From: an uncultured Verrucomicrobiae bacterium
GTDB lineage: Bacteria; Verrucomicrobiota; Verrucomicrobiia; Chthoniobacterales; JAFAMB01
Direction of reading: 5' to 3'
DNA length: 64,000 nucleotides
NCBI GenBank assembly: GCA_963813025.1
Contig: CAWEXO010000005.1
Span: 64,001 to 128,000 of the forward strand
Made by a program: the position numbers. Each line of letters starts with the position of its first letter. The stretch's first letter is position 1. This document shows, in pieces, positions 24,001 through 36,000 of this stretch.

Positions 24001-27000
24001 CGATCAAGGTAGGGTGCACGCCCAAGATAGCTGCTGCCGCTCCCCAAACGACGCCGCCCAGAGCCATCGCCCCTTGGGAAACCATGATGATGGTGGCGTT
24101 CATGCGGCCTCTCGACCAGCTTGGCATCGCGCGCTGCGCTGCAACCCAGAGTTCTGACGCAGACATCGTCCACCCGATTCCGGCAGCAGCAGCAACGATC
24201 ATGAAAATGGTCTGGTCTCGGACAAATGCCATCAGGAGGTAAACGACCGCTATCACCAGATTCGCGATCACGATGAGCGTATTGGAGGAAAGACGTGCCC
24301 GGACCCAGGGTACCACAAAAATCGCTCCAAATACGGCACCCGCACCCATGGAGCTGAACAGAATGCCACAACCCGCCGCTGTAAGTTTTAGCTCCTTCAG
24401 GCCGACGACCGGGATCAGTGCCGGTATCAGTGCGATAAAAAAGGCAAATAAGATATTTCGAGCCAATACAACCTGTATGCCTGGGGCATACCGAACGTAC
24501 CGAATCGCTGTAGAAAAAGATTCAAAAAAGTTCTCTAATGGTAGCTTCGACGGTCTCTCTTTTCGCTTCCATTGTAAGATTGCAAGAATTACGACAAGAA
24601 AACAGATCGCATTCAGCGTAAACACCCAGTTCGCTCCAATCAGCGGAATCAGCATCCCGCCAATAGCAGGTCCCAGAATCCCGGAAATGTTGAGTTGCAA
24701 GCCACCCAGCGTCGCGGCCGACGGAAGTTCCTCATCTGACACTAGTTCCGGCACAATCGCCGTCCAAGCAGGAGCGTTGAAGGCAAACCCAATTCCGATT
24801 AAGAAAATGCAAATCAGAATAATGTATGGATTAAGAACGCCGAGTGAACCAAGAATTGCGAGCAGCCCTGCAGCAACGGCTAGCCACACATTCATAATCC
24901 AAAGCAATTTGCGCCTGTCGACGATGTCCGCCAAAGCTCCGGCCGGCAAAGTAAATAGAAAGAACGGTAAAGACGCGACAGTTGACATTAAGGATAAAAA
25001 CAATGCAGACGGGCCGAGCTTAAACATCACCCAGGTTGCAGCGCAGTCATGAGCTGCAACACAAGTCCCGGAGAGTACACTTGCGAACCAGAGTTTTCGA
25101 AATACCGGGTTTCGCAGAGCGGTAAAAGTCGAAGTATTTTGTAAACTCTTGCTCATCCGAGCGCTTCTTTTTTTCAGCGGGCTTTGGCAAGAACACCGAG
25201 CTTCTGACGCTCACGTTCCGAACTTCGAAAAACCAAGATCCAGATTGAAAGCTCTCCATTGGTCCAGGCGAACAGGTTCAAAGTGACAAGACAGAGAGCC
25301 GAAAAAAACAGGGGCAACTTCTTCAAGTGGGGGAAACAAAACTTCAAAGCAGGATCTCTACCTTTATGACTGCTAGCCAGATGGGTCAAGCCACCGGTGC
25401 CGGCGCGGATAGAAAACTGGTCGTCGCTCAGCTTGCAGCGGCCGGGTAAAAACCGGCGGACGCTCTCATGACATCCGATTAATGGGGGTCTCTGGCAGGA
25501 GATTCCTCTTCTGGGATATTATCGCCGGATATCTGCCTACGCTTACGCTCTATTGCGTATTCGAGGGTTTCCCTGATTAACGTCCGCTGGGGTGATCTCG
25601 GAAACTTCAATCTCCCCCAATTCCTCAATCATGATCTCCAGGCGGTATTAAGCATCCCTAAATACGAGGCTTAGCGGGCCTTCGCCCGGTCGTTTTCCTT
25701 CTTTGATCGGTCAAGATCATAGTTTATCGATCAACCCTGGAACCAGGGAGGAGCGAGGGAGAATGCCCGGAGAACAGCTCTAGGACTTGAAGAACCGCTA
25801 CTGGAGAAGTGCCGATGGCGGGACTCGAACCCGCACGGAGCTTTCGCCCCAACGGATTTTAAGTTCGGTAAGGATCGTTGATTCTAAAGGACTTACATTG
25901 ACGAGTGCCTGAAAAGTGCCACCTTTGGCACTCATGGGAAGCAAACCAAGGTGGCCGGCTATTCGGGAACGCGTCAACGCATCTGGAACCATTTCGTTCG
26001 TCGTGGACGGAATAATTGGCGGCGAACGCCTCAGATCCTTTCACAAAACCAAGGGCGAAGCCGAAACCAAGGCGGCGCAAATGCGAGCCAAACGCGCAAA
26101 CGAAGGGGCTACCGCTTTTGGGTTGCCGGCGCCCGATCGGGTTGACGCCGAAACCGCCCTAGGCTTGCTAAAACCGCATGGGGTTCGCCTGGAACAGGCC
26201 GCCCAGTTTTATTTGCGCCACTTGGAAGTGATCCGGCAATCGAAGACGGCCGGCGAAGCGGTGGCTGAGCTGTTGGTGTCCAAAGAACAAGACAGAAAAA
26301 GCGCACGGTACTTGGGCGATATGCGCAACCGACTCGAAACCTTTGCCAACGATAAAACATTTGCCGCCCTACCTATTCATGAGATCACCGCCCGCCAGCT
26401 CGAGGATTGGTTGCGCCGGCTGCGCGTCTCACCAATCACCCGGAACAACTTCCGCCGGCTGATCGGTGTCTTGTTTGGGTTCGCTCTCAAACGCGGGTAC
26501 GTCCTGAAAAATCCCGTCAAGAATGTTGAGATCGCAAATGTCGAGAGCATCAAACCGGCAATCTTGAGCGTCGAAGAAACCCAGGCGTTGCTTAGCTGCG
26601 CCTCTGTCGAGCTTCTGCCAAGCTTGGTTGTGGCAGTTTTCGCGGGGTTACGGCCACAATCGGAAATCTTCCGCCTGGACTGGGCATCGATCCATCTGGA
26701 CGAAAAGGAAATTGATATCGCTCAATCGAAAAACCTGGCATCGCACCGTTACGTAAAAATTTCCGATAATCTGGCCGTCTGGTTGCGCCCTCACGTCAAG
26801 ACGAAAGGCCGCGTTGGCCTTCGCCATGAACCTTACTATCGGCATTTGCAAGCCGCTCGCGCGAAAGCTGCGGAAAGCTTGGAATCACAAGGGATCGATG
26901 CAACGACTCTGCGCGCCTGGGGTTCTGATATCTGCCGGCATACCTATGCGAGTTTTCACTACGGAATGTGGAAAAGTGCCGCCGCAACAGCCGAACAGCT

Positions 27001-33000: not shown

Positions 33001-36000
33001 GCACTAACTCAGCCGGCATCAACGCACTGCGCCGGGCGATCACCGCACGAAAAAAAATTCCCCCCGGGCAAGGTTCTTTTTGAAAAAATTTCGTTGGACG
33101 GGTGCTGGCGATCCTTCCATTCGCGCAATTAATGAGACGGTTTTGAGGTGAGTCCTCTCTCGTGATGGCTGAGGCGGAAAAGCTGGCTTCGGTTTACGTC
33201 ACCTCGGGTGAGCTGGGGGAAATGCTGCGATTACCGGAAGCCGAAGTGCGCAAGCTCGGCCGGCAAAACATTTTCCCGCGCATACCGAATCCGAAAAAAA
33301 GTGACAGTTTCCTGTATCCGGTAGCTGGATGCGTTGGTGCCTTCATCGACTCGTTCAAAAGCGAGTTGAGGCGCAACCAGGAAGGCTACGGCCGGGAAAA
33401 GATGCGCACCGAGAAAGCCCGGGGCGATATGCTCGAATTAGAGCACGCTTTGCGGCTGGGAAAATTACACGACGCCGAGCGCTGCCGGCAAGAACAGCTT
33501 GAGACTCATTCAATGGTGCGCCGCCGGTTGTTAATCCTGCCGCATCGCGCTGCCCGACGATTACCAGGTGATCCGATCGCTAATGAGTCGGTCTTGTCGC
33601 AAGAGCTTGGCGACTGTTTGAGTGCGTTAGCGGCCGGCGGGAAGGTGGCAGAGAACGGCCATGCAAAAACCAAAAAGCTCACCAAAACCCACGGCGTACG
33701 TACAAGCCGAAGTCTTTAGGCTCTACACACCGCCCGAACCGATGGATATCGTCCTTTGGTGCGAGCGGTTCAGGCGCTTAAGCTCCGAGGGCTCGAGCGA
33801 GCCTGGCCCTTACCGCATGTCACGCGCGCCGTTCTTCGCTGAGCCGATGCGCGCCTGTGTCGATCCGCGAACCCGGGAAGTAGTCTGTATGGGCGCTTCT
33901 CAGATCTCGAAAACCGAAAGCCTTATCCTGAACGTTCTGGCGTACAAGATCGCCAATGATCCCGCCCCGAGTTTGCTGGTTACGAGCACACTGCCGGCGT
34001 GCCAGTCGCTCAGCCATGACAGGTTCGAACCGATGTGTCGGGATTGCGCGCCTTTGCGCGGCCTGGTTGCCGAACGCGGCGGCCCTAACACCGAGGGCGG
34101 TTCAACGATCTACCGGAAAAGCTTTAAGGGCGGCCATTTGACGCTGGTTGGTTCGAACTCGGCGAGCGGCCTAGCCCGGATGCCGATCCGTGATCTGTAT
34201 CTCACCGAAGTTGATCGGTTCAGCACAGACGCCGGCAACGAGGAAGGCGATCCGGTTTCCTTGGCGCGGATTCGGACAAGCACTTTTCATGATGCCAAGG
34301 TAATCATGGAATCATCGCCCACCGTTGCCGGCCGATCCCGGATCGAGGCGGCTTATCTGAACAGCACGCAAGAGCATTGGTACAATGCTTGTCCGAGCTG
34401 CGGCTTTTTCCAGATCATCGCGCTAGGCCGAATGGATTTCGCTACCGCAACTCATCGGTGCGAGCATTGCGGCGAAGCAGCTGGGCAGAGTGCCTGGCAA
34501 GCGAGTCCGGGCGAATGGCGGGCGCATGGCGAACATCCGACGATCCGCGGGTTTCATATTCCGTGCTGGCCGTCGCCTTTGATCTCTTGGCAAACGGTGA
34601 TCGAAGAATTCCGGGTTGCGAGCCGGCTGGCGGACGAAGGCGATTCTTCGTGGCTCAGAGTTATCGTCAATACCAGGTTCGCCGAATGCTTCGTCGAAGC
34701 CGAGGCTCGCATGAACGAAGACGATCTACTTGGACGCCGGGAAGAATACGAAGCCGAGATCCCAGATGGCGTGCTGATCTTACTGGCGAGTGTCGATAGC
34801 CAAGACGATCGGCTCTGTTATCAGGTTTCGGGGATCGGCCGCGGAAGAGAGGCTTGGTTGATCGAATACGGAACGATCTGGGGCGATTTGGCGACGAACG
34901 CTGCCCCGATGTACCAAGAGCTCGAAGAACGCGTTCTGGCGCGGCTCTGGCGCTTTGGCGATGGCCAATTGATCAAGGTGCGTCGGTGTGCGCAAGACGC
35001 GATGGGCCATCATTCCAGTACCGTTTATACTGAGGTGAAGAAACGTGCCCGGCAGATGATCGCCTTCCGTGGCCGGCCCGTTGGGATCGCCAAGTCACTC
35101 TACACACTCACACATTCAAGCAACGAAGGCGCCCCTGTCCTGGTCGGCACTGTTGATCTGGCCAAGGATTTGTTATCGGGCTTGCTCAAGGTGCCTGCTG
35201 CGGGGCGGGGTTACCTTCATATCCCGGCAGAAGAAGCGCGCGGGTTCGGCGAAGCGTGGGCCGCTGAGATGATGGCCGAACGCAAAGAAATCAAGTATCG
35301 GAACGGCCAGCGGATCGCGGTATGGACAAAGCGAGCTGGCAGCAGAAACGAAGCATGGGATCTGATGGTGATGACGTTAATCCTGGCCGAAAGCTTGCAA
35401 CTCAATATGGAACAGAGAACGCCGGACTATTACAGCGAGGAAAACAAAACACCAACAGGGCAGCGCCGCTGGGGCGTCCAAAATGCACCGAGCGGGTTCG
35501 GGCAACCGCAAGATCTGATCGTTCGAAGCCGGGTAGTGCCCAGGAACCTAGACGAACCTGATCTTGTTCTACCCGGCGCACCCGTAAAACCGCGCTATGG
35601 CGTCCAGAACAAACCGATGAATTGGTAAATCGAGTGCCAAACGAGTGCCAGAAAGTGACAGGATTTTGGGAAATAATGGGGTATTTCGGGTTTTAATGGG
35701 TTAGAACAGGTAACGATGTTAACTGCTCTTTAGTCCCTCGGGAATCGGCTCTAGGACTTGATGTTCAGCCACCAGAGCCTTGCCGATGGCGGGACTCGAA
35801 CCCGCACGGAGCTTTCGCCCCAACGGATTTTAAGTCCGTTGCGTCTGCCATTCCGCCACATCGGCACACTGGTCTGAAAAGGAACCTGTGCACCGAAATC
35901 ACGCAAGGACAAAAAGTGGTTGGCCTAACCCGCTGGAAGGTTTTCGGCGTCCGGGGAGAAATCAGTTTTCCGCGTGAACGGAACACGGTTGGATTTCGGG

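Follow-up and report, generated by a model that had tools for sequence, protein, structure and literature searches.

A tRNA-Leu(TAA) element with its own capsid, decoration and terminase genes as a probable helper-dependent phage satellite

The element integrated in tRNA-Leu(TAA) of this Verrucomicrobiae bacterium is best read from its sequence as a phage satellite that depends on a helper and is of PICI/cf-PICI grade, a reading to which we give a probability of about 0.65. It appears to belong to a local family of portal-less elements that end in genes for a small and a GpA-type large terminase subunit (TerS-TerL), and for its spread it most likely relies on a helper phage to provide portal, neck, tail and lysis functions. 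This mix of own shell, cement and packaging enzymes without portal, tail or lysis genes appears to be undescribed so far for phage parasites. The genome-wide survey's note on this DNA had also proposed a satellite, and all points that can be tested in the sequence favour it over a prophage with an internal deletion: a gene order that one deletion cannot reach, portal-less relatives of shared architecture, a common TerL clade, a metagenome contig that repeats a capsid junction, an empty integration site in a sister species, and the predicted folds of two proteins.

Integration site and gene content

All coordinates refer to the window, the 64-kb stretch of contig C5 that was analysed, in which the element occupies 25810-35835. 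Its integration target is tRNA-Leu(TAA) (ARAGORN; 35780..35866, minus strand), and the 55-bp direct repeat with one copy in this gene, described in the survey, is exact. The intact tRNA-Leu contains the proximal att repeat (35781..35835) as its 3' part, while the distal one (25810..25864), the attL/R core, is a displaced copy of these 55 nt; the two start 9,971 bp apart. At lower identity the repeat extends further, with 85% over 100 nt (25768-25867 compared with 35739-35838), and BLASTN against the 4.42-Mb assembly finds no copy of the 55-bp sequence beyond these two. A candidate arm-type integrase-binding site, CGAGTGCCTGAAA (25894..25915, plus strand), has partners at 35631-35654 at the opposite element end. 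The sequence CGAGTGCCWRAAA matches twice in the window, both times just inside the element ends, a weak signal as two or more matches were found in 5 of 100 shuffles.

In G196, a sister species of the same genus, the site is empty and tRNA-Leu is intact. Its flanks are syntenic with those of the element at 83-86% identity, with only ~0.97 kb between them, and in the sister species the 3' part of the tRNA matches the distal att repeat at 97% identity. This synteny on both sides bears on the idea that the contig was assembled from fragments of distinct elements or strains in the metagenome. Such a chimera would fit an assembly of 16 contigs at 80% completeness, in which another contig, C6, is mosaic, composed of repeats together with near-copies of contigs elsewhere in the assembly. 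However, exact repeats spaced by 9,971 bp and a coherent gene order, seen again in siblings located on different contigs and in different genomes, make it highly improbable.

The 9,971-bp unit holds 12 ORFs, the number given in the survey, all intact and closely spaced; primase and helicase overlap, as do TerS and TerL, and there are no cargo genes. They run from the integrase, a divergent XRE regulator and an AlpA/Xis-type HTH protein through primase and helicase, the iterons and the morphogenesis genes to terS-terL as the last pair; the same order, from int to terS-terL, is reported for proteobacterial cf-PICIs. None of the 12 proteins matches portal, protease, tail or lysis families in Pfam or PHROGs. 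In this the survey's searches were reproduced, as were its PHROGs scores and Pfam matches for the individual genes, which are given below.

The tyrosine integrase (393 aa; 25916..27097, plus strand) lies at the tRNA-distal end and reads inward. It matches phrog_1 at 2.7e-27 and Phage_int_M at 30 bits (cut-off 27), and scores 25.6 bits for Phage_integrase (cut-off 27.1). The XRE/HTH_3 regulator (208 aa; 27051..27677, minus strand) is divergent from the rightward operon, and its position makes it a candidate master repressor. It matches HTH_3 at 2.5e-6 (27.8 bits, cut-off 23) as well as PHROG families of transcriptional regulators and repressors, and thereby leaves the group of four small unknowns listed in the survey, of which the other three stay as they were. 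An HTH_17 protein of AlpA/excisionase type follows (65 aa; 27760..27957, plus strand; HTH_17 2.9e-8; phrog_66, excisionase/regulator, 8.8e-6).

Replication, capsid and decoration genes

There is no room for a portal gene, since just one of the unknowns exceeds 146 aa, and it is a primase-polymerase rather than a portal. This 333-aa protein (28348..29349, plus strand) has more than 416 homologues, in some of which a CHC2 zinc finger replaces the N-terminal part, and E212/D214 and S269/H271 are invariant. With its AF2 model (pLDDT 91.7), ranks 1-13 of the Foldseek search against the PDB are all prim-pol, LigD-pol or AEP chains (lowest E 1.4e-3, with no match reaching 1e-3). Homologues, residues and predicted fold agree on an AEP-type primase-polymerase, which gives a function to one half of the replication pair named in the survey. 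The other half is again recognised as an AAA_25 (RepA/DnaB-like) helicase with a winged-helix-like C-terminal tail (about 29346..30407, plus strand; AAA_25 4.6e-11; PHROGs DNA helicase 2.5e-8 and primase/helicase 8.9e-7). Its start codon, as read from the sequence, overlaps the primase stop (ATGA). Within the same operon lies orf126 (27961..28341, plus strand), with a weak PHROG match to ssDNA-binding protein (7.9e-4) and a coding score near zero. Directly 3' of the helicase gene lies a cluster of iterons (30413..30526). GGCACAA occurs 20 times in the window, 6 times within an 81-bp part of this cluster (30436-30516), which also has two direct repeats of 35 nt and a number of inverted pairs. 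From its position, this cluster is a candidate origin of replication.

Next comes orf114 (30602..30946, plus strand), which has no Pfam or PHROG match and Atlas scores of at most 0.86 that serve as leads only. Its C-terminal half is acidic and appears helical by eye, and composition and position make it a candidate internal scaffold; no scaffold or protease is recognisable by family among the element genes. The coding status of orf146 (30956..31396, plus strand) is uncertain: its codon-usage score of -0.014 falls between real genes and most wrong frames, and it has no Pfam or PHROG family and no usable Atlas match.

The major capsid protein (MCP; 370 aa; 31435..32547, plus strand) belongs to the lambda gpE family (Phage_cap_E 3e-30, profile positions 1-318 of 329; phrog_29 2.3e-42) and has an acidic C-terminal tail. 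Six relatives at 46-51% identity were found among 5.8 billion proteins, and the MCPs of 41-47-kb phages are 28-31% identical. Within the order, relatives occur in 5 of 400 other genomes, all of one genus, which bears out the five genomes counted in the survey. In the islands of genus g80 that carry a capsid gene, the scanned part contained no terminase.

Next to it lies the head decoration (cement) protein (Dec; 123 aa; 32555..32926, plus strand; PHROGs head decoration 1.8e-4), called head-decoration-like in the survey. Dec itself reaches only 1.3e-3 for HDPD, below Pfam's cut-off, while 30 of 50 aligned homologues match this family, the best at 4.7e-20. The AF2 model (pLDDT 88.7) has 11 PDB matches at E ≤0.001, including lambda 8xqb and 1c5e and phage 21 SHP 1td3, and all Foldseek rows to rank 20 are phage capsid-entry chains or gpD/SHP-type proteins. 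The decoration protein is thus confirmed by transitive homology and by its predicted lambda gpD fold. Both capsid genes recur together in L003, a 3-kb metagenome contig that carries a helicase C-terminus with a similar tail, ~1 kb of further sequence, an MCP (51% identity) and then a Dec (42-46% identity); MCP-Dec order and helicase-MCP adjacency are also found in L023.

Could the element work on its own? Three small proteins (orf114, orf126 and orf146) have no assignable function, and the lambda-type portal PF05136 occurs in 0 of 43 genomes of the bacterial family, as would be expected if structural proteins among these three served a minimal virus-like element or a portal-independent packager. 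Packaging by tailed-phage terminases requires a dodecameric portal with ~300 aa or more per subunit. With 146 aa for the largest unassigned ORF, and with no adsorption, tail or lysis function encoded, autonomy has very little probability.

Terminase, gene order and related elements

Upstream of TerS we find a conserved DNA block (33036..33130, plus strand) of the form CCCnGGG .. GGnTCyT .. ~25 nt .. GACGGGTGC .. GCGATC. It aligns with regions that lie 43-73 nt ahead of TerS in the C13, C8, C5b and G196 elements. CGGGTGC is invariant in all five elements of the genus, although the other TerS proteins are only 26-34% identical to that of the tRNA-Leu element. The block may be a cos site or a late promoter/operator. 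TerS (185 aa; 33162..33719, plus strand) matches phrog_57 at 8.5e-14, as does TerS of all sibling elements to the same family. TerL (655 aa; 33661..35628, plus strand) is of the lambda GpA type and nearly complete in its domains (GpA_ATPase 9.1e-59, profile 1-247 of 247; GpA_nuclease 1.2e-61, 1-290 of 294; phrog_15 3e-172), and its stop lies 152 bp before the tRNA.

The identities of 36-42% to other GpA terminases of the genome, given in the survey, hold (42%, 42% and 36%, with 32% for a broken copy). Their carriers, described there as prophage remnants, are instead portal-less elements of shared architecture, so that the claim that no relative has the same layout falls as well. The shared order is int, XRE, replication, small genes, block, TerS-TerL and tRNA, in three genomes of two genera. 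Four such elements could be mapped along most or all of their extent, two of them bounded by repeats. The first, G000 C13 (17.7 kb), lies between exact 38-bp repeats and is 39% (int), 29% (XRE, at the equivalent position), 32% (TerS) and 42% (TerL) identical to the tRNA-Leu element; G000 C8 and G196 each adjoin tRNA-Arg; and G136, from another genus (13.9 kb), has 65-nt repeats of 98% identity at tRNA-Ser, with 27% for int, 32% for XRE at the same relative position and 33% for TerL. TerL as the last gene before the tRNA is thus seen in four further elements. Among the scanned ORFs of at least 70 aa, the siblings gave no portal, capsid or tail match. The exact gene set of the tRNA-Leu element is known in one copy. 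A search of the 43 genomes in the bacterial family found GpA TerL in 4, and three portal families had no match in the element's own genome, an 80% complete assembly in which a resident helper, a distant or very divergent portal gene, or a portal of some further family could escape notice.

A TerL tree of 17 rows, 11 of them outside sequences from phages and IMG/VR, groups five element TerLs out of six in a single clade (support 99/97) apart from the phage and IMG/VR TerLs, with the position of the G136 TerL uncertain. Outside one pair of 89%, the clade members are 36-56% identical, which implies long persistence in the element context.

These data weigh on the possibility of a defective prophage, in which deletion stripped a lambda-like temperate phage of its portal, protease, neck, tail and lysis genes and left an inert remnant with both att sites. 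The nearest cultured relatives of MCP and TerL are found in the same 41-47-kb phages (Lily, phiERICV, vB_EalM-137), so both may derive from one head module, and clearly decayed copies exist in the genome (TerL in pieces on C1, a split integrase and truncated helicase on C4). Five phages were inspected for comparison, namely lambda and the four closest ones in culture (Lily, vB_EalM-137, CRP-821 and Lelie). Their order, however, is TerS-TerL-(small gene)-portal, with the portal gene within 0.6 kb after TerL; protease-Dec-MCP follows in lambda and three of the four, whereas CRP-821 has a single large capsid gene. The tRNA-Leu element instead reads MCP-Dec-block-TerS-TerL-att, with MCP before Dec. 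A prophage origin would need several deletions and a rearrangement, one of them with an end point exactly in the gap that separates the TerL stop from attR. Given also the recurrence of this layout in the siblings, of the capsid junction in L003 and L023, the intact ORFs and the diverged TerL clade, we consider a defective prophage unlikely and the satellite the better reading.

What is new in such a satellite is narrower than the survey's phrase of a new make-up. PICI-like tycheposons and EPIPs are published satellites with a major capsid gene and no portal gene reported, so this feature is already in print. The combination with TerS, TerL and a decoration protein looks new, and in the literature searched we have not encountered a satellite with TerL but without a portal, which also counts against the reading. 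A foreign portal would have to fit both the shell and the terminase of the satellite.

A proposed satellite cycle

We infer every step of the following cycle. The XRE regulator would hold the rightward operon silent until a helper phage or stress lifts repression. Integrase and the HTH_17 protein would then excise a 9,971-bp circle at the 55-bp core, and the AEP primase-polymerase and AAA_25 helicase would replicate it from the iteron cluster. The gpE-type capsid protein may assemble on a portal supplied by the helper, possibly with orf114 or orf146 as scaffold or size determinant. With the conserved block before terS as their recognition site, TerS and TerL would package satellite DNA, and the gpD-type protein would cement the filled shell. 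Head-completion and neck proteins, tail and lysis, like the portal, would come from the helper.

The same proteins could serve another end. In a satellite-derived island that has lost transfer and acts mainly against phages, capsid, Dec and terminase would poison or misdirect phage assembly and packaging. Known satellites are described as interfering with both processes of their helpers, the element carries no cargo, and its genome holds at least six such islands. Integrase, Xis-type HTH, intact and exact att repeats, a complete replication module with iterons and the cis block point to mobility, and we hold a purely defensive island to be improbable; in known satellites, interference and transfer are compatible.

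Boundaries, insertion and early genes

The element at 25810-35835 of the window is bracketed by a direct repeat that the repeat finder places at a spacing of 9,971 bp and that is exact over 55 bp, 25810-25864 being identical to 35781-35835. The second copy lies within tRNA-Leu(taa), 35780-35866 on the minus strand, the one tRNA that ARAGORN finds in the window. BLASTN detects just two copies of the repeat region in the 4.42-Mb, 16-contig assembly. The repeat and the tRNA on which the genome-wide survey's note had based the boundaries were both found again. In G196, a sister species of the same genus, both flanks are syntenic (window 22300-23432 at 86%, 35781-39600 at 83%) and are separated by about 0.97 kb of unrelated sequence; tRNA-Leu(taa) is intact and the element is absent. 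The element is real, intact-looking and inserted, and G196 has the same site without it.

The stretch adjoining tRNA-Leu is a variable spot independent of the element. An MFS_3 transporter gene (23486-25156, minus strand, 2e-129) and its surroundings, together 23433-25809, are missing at the syntenic site of G196. The att repeat extends imperfectly for about 42 nt past the tRNA 3' end (25768-25809 versus 35739-35780), and the chromosomal side of the distal att copy resembles the element's own end, not the G196 sequence downstream of tRNA-Leu. This extension could go back to a resident that once lay here in tandem, or to attP homology picked up from a related host.

The repeats enclose 12 ORFs with hardly any spacers, 11 of them on the plus strand. 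All Pfam and PHROGs scores quoted by the survey were obtained again, and its statement that portal, protease, tail and lysis genes are missing holds for both libraries, as none of the 12 proteins matches these families. The survey had counted four small unknowns. One of them, encoded on the minus strand and 208 aa long, reaches 27.8 bits with HTH_3 (Pfam cut-off 23) and is an XRE/HTH_3 regulator, which leaves the label to orf126, orf114 and orf146. The XRE gene is transcribed divergently from the HTH_17 gene and its position is that of a master repressor, for which it is a candidate. The three remaining small ORFs are all adaptor-sized and match no head-tail adaptor or connector family in Pfam or PHROGs. 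Atlas returns no usable match for orf146, and for orf114 scores of at most 0.86 that serve as leads only. The codon-usage score of orf146 is ambiguous on a weak measure, by which one antisense frame is also slightly positive, and it gives no decision on orf146 or on the 65-aa HTH gene. Conventional portal proteins are larger than 146 aa. Since each of the three ORFs encodes at most 146 aa, there is no conventional portal among them.

The replication genes are better defined. More than 416 relatives are found for the 333-aa product of orf333, in some of which a CHC2 zinc finger replaces the N-terminal third, and E212, D214, S269 and H271 are invariant in an alignment of 32 of them. Its AlphaFold model (pLDDT 91.7) has as its best 13 Foldseek matches in the PDB exclusively archaeo-eukaryotic-type primase-polymerases (AEP) or LigD polymerase domains. 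These matches score only modestly, the best at E 1.4e-3 and none as low as 1e-3, with a TM of about 0.3 because the match covers the C-terminal domain only; a sequence search of the PDB gives 0 matches. We read orf333 as a predicted AEP primase-polymerase. The AAA_25 helicase gene follows with a start codon that overlaps the orf333 stop (ATGA). The closest paralogue in the genome (54%; C15:47843-49950, L036 7844-9954) is paired with a different helicase/primase protein, and about 2 kb from it the opposite strand carries a weak TerS-like gene (phrog_1206, 1.5e-6).

GGCACAA occurs 20 times in the 64-kb window, and six of these sites, which form direct and inverted repeats, are clustered in 81 bp (30436-30516) just past the helicase gene. 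We take this cluster as a candidate origin of replication. CGAGTGCCWRAAA has only two matches in the window, one close inside each end of the element; they may on weak statistics be arm-type integrase sites. A scan for promoters and terminators gave counts at chance level.

Shell proteins and the order of the head genes

The major capsid protein (MCP) matches Phage_cap_E (3e-30) and phrog_29 (2.3e-42). Its lineage is poorly sampled, with six relatives only, at 46-51% identity, among 5.8 billion proteins. The relatives P0005, P0004 and P0002 sit on contigs of 10.8 kb, 12.8 kb and 6.1 kb. Metagenome contigs with the MCP comprise two short ones, L003 and L004. On the 3-kb L003, the winged-helix-like C-terminus of a gene is followed after about 1 kb by a frameshifted MCP and a homologue of the decoration protein (Dec), in the order of the element. 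A search of genome contigs gave a single weak match of 63 residues. Against IMG/VR, the MCP query finds no close relatives; the MCP alignment finds 2 loci, both 27% identical and on contigs of 22-30 kb, and P0004 finds 2 loci at 33% with normal TerL...MCP spacing.

More distant MCPs occur in 5 of the 400 other genomes sampled from the order, all from one genus (g80) and with at most five matching places per genome; in the sample of the phylum, the MCP alignment matches 2 of 400 other genomes. Two g80 loci were scanned with Pfam and are islands with integrase plus primase or helicase, with an HDPD protein following the MCP in one of them (L023). Neither terminase nor portal is found among the ORFs scanned there, and the remaining g80 loci were checked solely by tblastn with the element's proteins. 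This agrees with the survey, which had found the capsid gene in few genomes of the order and there outside the element's gene set. In the g80 genomes G295, G266, G254 and G362 (L023-L031), several of the places that match the gpE-type MCP profile have internal stops, and where scanned the integrase-plus-primase/helicase islands are heavily invaded by IS elements.

Dec (123 aa) by itself stays below the Pfam HDPD cut-off, and a word-indexed search returns only Dec itself. A profile of Dec and its L003 homologue recovers 79 proteins at E <= 0.001 among 1.84 billion, and 30 of the 50 aligned homologues match HDPD, the best at 4.7e-20. The Dec model (pLDDT 88.7) has 11 PDB matches at E <= 0.001. 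Every one of ranks 1-20 is either a phage capsid-entry chain or a decoration protein of the gpD/SHP type, lambda gpD and phage 21 SHP among them. By its predicted structure, Dec is a gpD-fold decoration protein.

The nearest cultured relatives of the MCP (28-31%) and TerL (35-38%) are found in the head modules of Lily, phiERICV, vB_EalM-137 and Lelie, and gpE-type MCP, gpD-type decoration protein and GpA terminase are families common to the element and lambda-like head modules. One explanation would be a prophage that lost its middle by deletion. The gene order makes this unlikely. Those four phages have genomes of 41-53 kb, in which tail genes come after TerS-TerL-adaptor-portal-protease-Dec-MCP, and cutting adaptor, portal and protease from this order would leave TerS-TerL-Dec-MCP plus tail genes. 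The element instead reads MCP-Dec-block-TerS-TerL-att, with portal, protease and everything downstream missing. In lambda, Lily, vB_EalM-137, CRP-821 and Lelie, TerS-TerL-(small gene) is followed by the portal, and then by protease-Dec-MCP in four of these five phages and by a single large capsid gene in CRP-821; the element does not have the head order of lambda, Lily, vB_EalM-137 or Lelie. Its layout moreover recurs in diverged relatives, and it agrees with the proteobacterial cf-PICI order of morphogenesis genes first and hnh-terS-terL last, as given in the published passages on those satellites.

We conclude, with a probability of roughly two in three, that the element is a phage satellite with its own shell, cement and packaging enzyme, which would depend on a helper for portal, neck, tail and lysis functions. 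The survey had proposed such a satellite, and we retain this as the best reading of an intact-looking, inserted element whose layout is recurrent in diverged relatives and is not that of a phage after a single deletion.

Sibling elements and a shared packaging module

The block between Dec and TerS, about 95 nt long (33036-33130), has counterparts that align with it in four further elements of the genus, located 43-73 nt before terS. Its CGGGTGC is invariant in all five, although those TerS are only 26-34% identical to that of the element. The block is a candidate cos site, or alternatively a late promoter or operator. The motif is absent in the expected context from L003, from the element in G136, a genome of another genus, and from the g80 loci L023, L024, L025 and L027. 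A further copy on contig C6 of the element's own genome was rejected as a separate element. This 20.3-kb contig is a mosaic in which near-copies (95-99%) of C13, C5 and C4 segments are combined with IS-like repeats. It probably reflects an assembly collapse or a strain variant, and copy counts in the genome need caution.

The survey had regarded the other GpA terminases as prophage remnants. This has to be revised, as those on C13 and C8 of the same genome belong to sibling elements, whose architecture is shared by elements in G196 and G136; those of C13 and G136 are repeat-bounded. The C13 element (L032) lies between exact 38-bp repeats that resemble a tRNA 3' end, 17,721 bp apart, and consists of about 4.4 kb of cargo, TerL, TerS, eight small ORFs, a family-A DNA polymerase, XRE and integrase. 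This layout is the mirror image of the element's, with identities to it of 42% for TerL, 32% for TerS, 29% for XRE and 39% for integrase. The C8 element (L033) adjoins tRNA-Arg and its TerL is 55% identical to that of C13. In G196 (L070), tRNA-Arg, cargo, TerL, TerS, the conserved block and four small pre-TerS genes shared with the siblings are combined with a different primase/helicase set. The G136 element (L071) lies between two tRNA-Ser copies with a 65-nt repeat, 98% identical and 13,895 bp apart, and contains integrase (27%), XRE (32%), recombination genes, HNH, TerS, TerL (33%) and a few cargo genes. The ORFs of at least 70 aa scanned in these four elements match neither portal nor capsid nor tail families.

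Further observations concern the siblings and their neighbourhood. The replication genes of C13 and C8 are 93-99% identical (family-A DNA polymerase 98%), compared with 55% for TerL and 32% for TerS, a contrast that on sequence grounds indicates a recent module exchange between resident elements. A protein of about 240 aa with 39-50% identity is encoded upstream of the cos-like block in three siblings (L032 7551-8255, L033 11252-11992, L070 13304-14035), separated from the block by an open frame or another small gene. Its matches are weak and coiled-coil-like only (Nup54, Spectrin, SOG2), and conserved genes of about 85, 160 and 93 aa follow. Placed where the element has MCP and Dec, it is a candidate scaffold or size determinant. 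Two loci of the genome are decayed: C1:45880-47777 (L035) has a GpA TerL in two or three frames adjoining tRNA-Met, and C4:122000-126000 (L037) an integrase in two pieces beside a homologue of orf333 (32%) and a helicase stump of 104 aa. A (CAGTAT)n tandem array of about 25 units lies in or beside an ORF upstream of the C8 element (L033 336-503, C8:166,336-166,503).

Of the 17 TerLs in a maximum-likelihood tree, six come from the elements, and five of these form one clade with support 99/97. The outside set, made up of six IMG/VR sequences, lambda and four cultured phages, stands apart from it. The TerL of G136 is a long branch without resolved placement. The TerL query finds 4 IMG/VR loci, at 25-30% identity in 39-45-kb contigs. 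Among the bacterial family's 43 genomes, 4 have GpA TerL and none has the lambda-type portal PF05136, which is found in 3 of 14 control genomes; PF04860 and PF05133 have no match in the element's own genome (80% complete). With GpA terminases and no lambda-type portal in the genomes of the family, the helpers would be phages not yet known.

A wider reading, which we hold tentatively and at slightly less than even odds, places the element in an undescribed family of tRNA-integrating satellites. Their hallmark would be an own GpA-type TerS/TerL with a shared cos-like site and no portal, so that the helper is seized at the portal vertex and not at the capsid or TerS; this member would also have swapped the helper shell for its own gpE/gpD pair. 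The siblings with TerS and TerL and no capsid gene suggest that takeover of the packaging motor is a separate strategy.

Comparison with known satellites

Satellites are usually sorted by what is stolen, which is whole capsids for PICI, P4 and PLE or tails only for cf-PICI. With classical PICIs and SaPIs the element shares size, integration at a tRNA or other specific site, an own TerS and, as a presumed satellite, the need for helper virion parts. The order int, repressor, Xis, primase-helicase and ori is likewise shared, the last two in the SaPI rep-ori arrangement. Classical PICIs and SaPIs carry no virion structural genes, whereas the element has genes for an MCP and a gpD-fold Dec. Full-length MCP, decoration protein and TerL set it apart from classical PICIs, for which the passages available describe remodelling of helper-made capsids and use of the helper TerL. 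None of its 12 proteins is annotated as a P4-like Psu, Sid, Delta or alpha primase in the general Pfam and PHROGs libraries.

According to the passages on cf-PICIs, these encode capsid, protease, portal, head-tail connectors, HNH, TerS and TerL, and SatelliteFinder counts 9 to 11 of its 11 core components in types A-C. As in cf-PICIs such as EcCIEDL933, the element is integrative, and its int, HTH_17, AEP primase-polymerase and AAA_25 helicase would be analogous in function to their int, AlpA-type regulator and primase set. It likewise has its own MCP, TerS (phrog_57, 8.5e-14) and TerL (GpA_ATPase and GpA_nuclease near full length), and Pfam and PHROGs detect no tail, lysis or holin genes. In contrast to cf-PICIs as so described, it is smaller (about 10 kb), combines a lambda gpE-type capsid and gpD-type decoration with a GpA terminase, and reaches only about 6 of the 11 components. 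No portal family is matched by the 12 proteins, the sole ORF long enough being the primase-polymerase; no prohead protease family is matched in Pfam or PHROGs, the leftover ORFs being at most 146 aa, and no HNH endonuclease is matched within the element beside terS-terL. Head-tail adaptor and connector families give no match in the two libraries either, although orf114, orf126 and orf146 have the size of an adaptor. A portal and neck would have to be borrowed besides the tail.

If the wider reading is true, the element would be a natural intermediate of classical PICIs and cf-PICIs, with own shell and motor and borrowed portal and tail. As a satellite of the kind proposed, it would represent a third division of labour, in which shell, cement and packaging motor are own and portal, neck and tail are stolen; if so, a foreign portal could nucleate a satellite-encoded shell and dock a satellite-encoded terminase. 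This would bear on the specificity of portal-MCP and portal-TerL contacts and on a possible stepwise evolution of cf-PICIs from PICIs. In the abstracts and matched passages of the literature searched, we found neither a satellite with MCP, Dec, TerS and TerL but no portal, nor satellites defined by TerS and TerL without a portal. Most VEIMEs are described there as lacking capsid genes, and MulchRoom and MiniFlayer as having a portal.

Closer in capsid content are the PICI-like tycheposons of Prochlorococcus, stated to carry "either a terS or MCP", and the EPIPs of Mycolicibacterium, for which TerS, adaptor, stopper, scaffold, MCP and tape measure protein are listed and the word "portal" occurs 0 times in the text seen. 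Like the element, these are small integrative elements with an MCP gene and no reported portal; unlike it, they are reported in those passages without large terminase or gpD-type decoration protein. The g80 islands with integrase, primase and MCP, two of them with an HDPD protein, look tycheposon- or EPIP-grade by the same descriptions, with no terminase among the ORFs scanned there. Of similar grade is an island at C5:317,300-330,800 of the element's own contig (L041 9323-19720, L034 1887-2957), in which terminase and portal were not seen. It carries an integrase, a 685-aa primase, HNH/endonuclease VII-type genes, a 378-aa HK97-type MCP and a 704-aa TMP_3 tape-measure-like protein, and the pair of MCP and tape measure recalls EPIPs as described.
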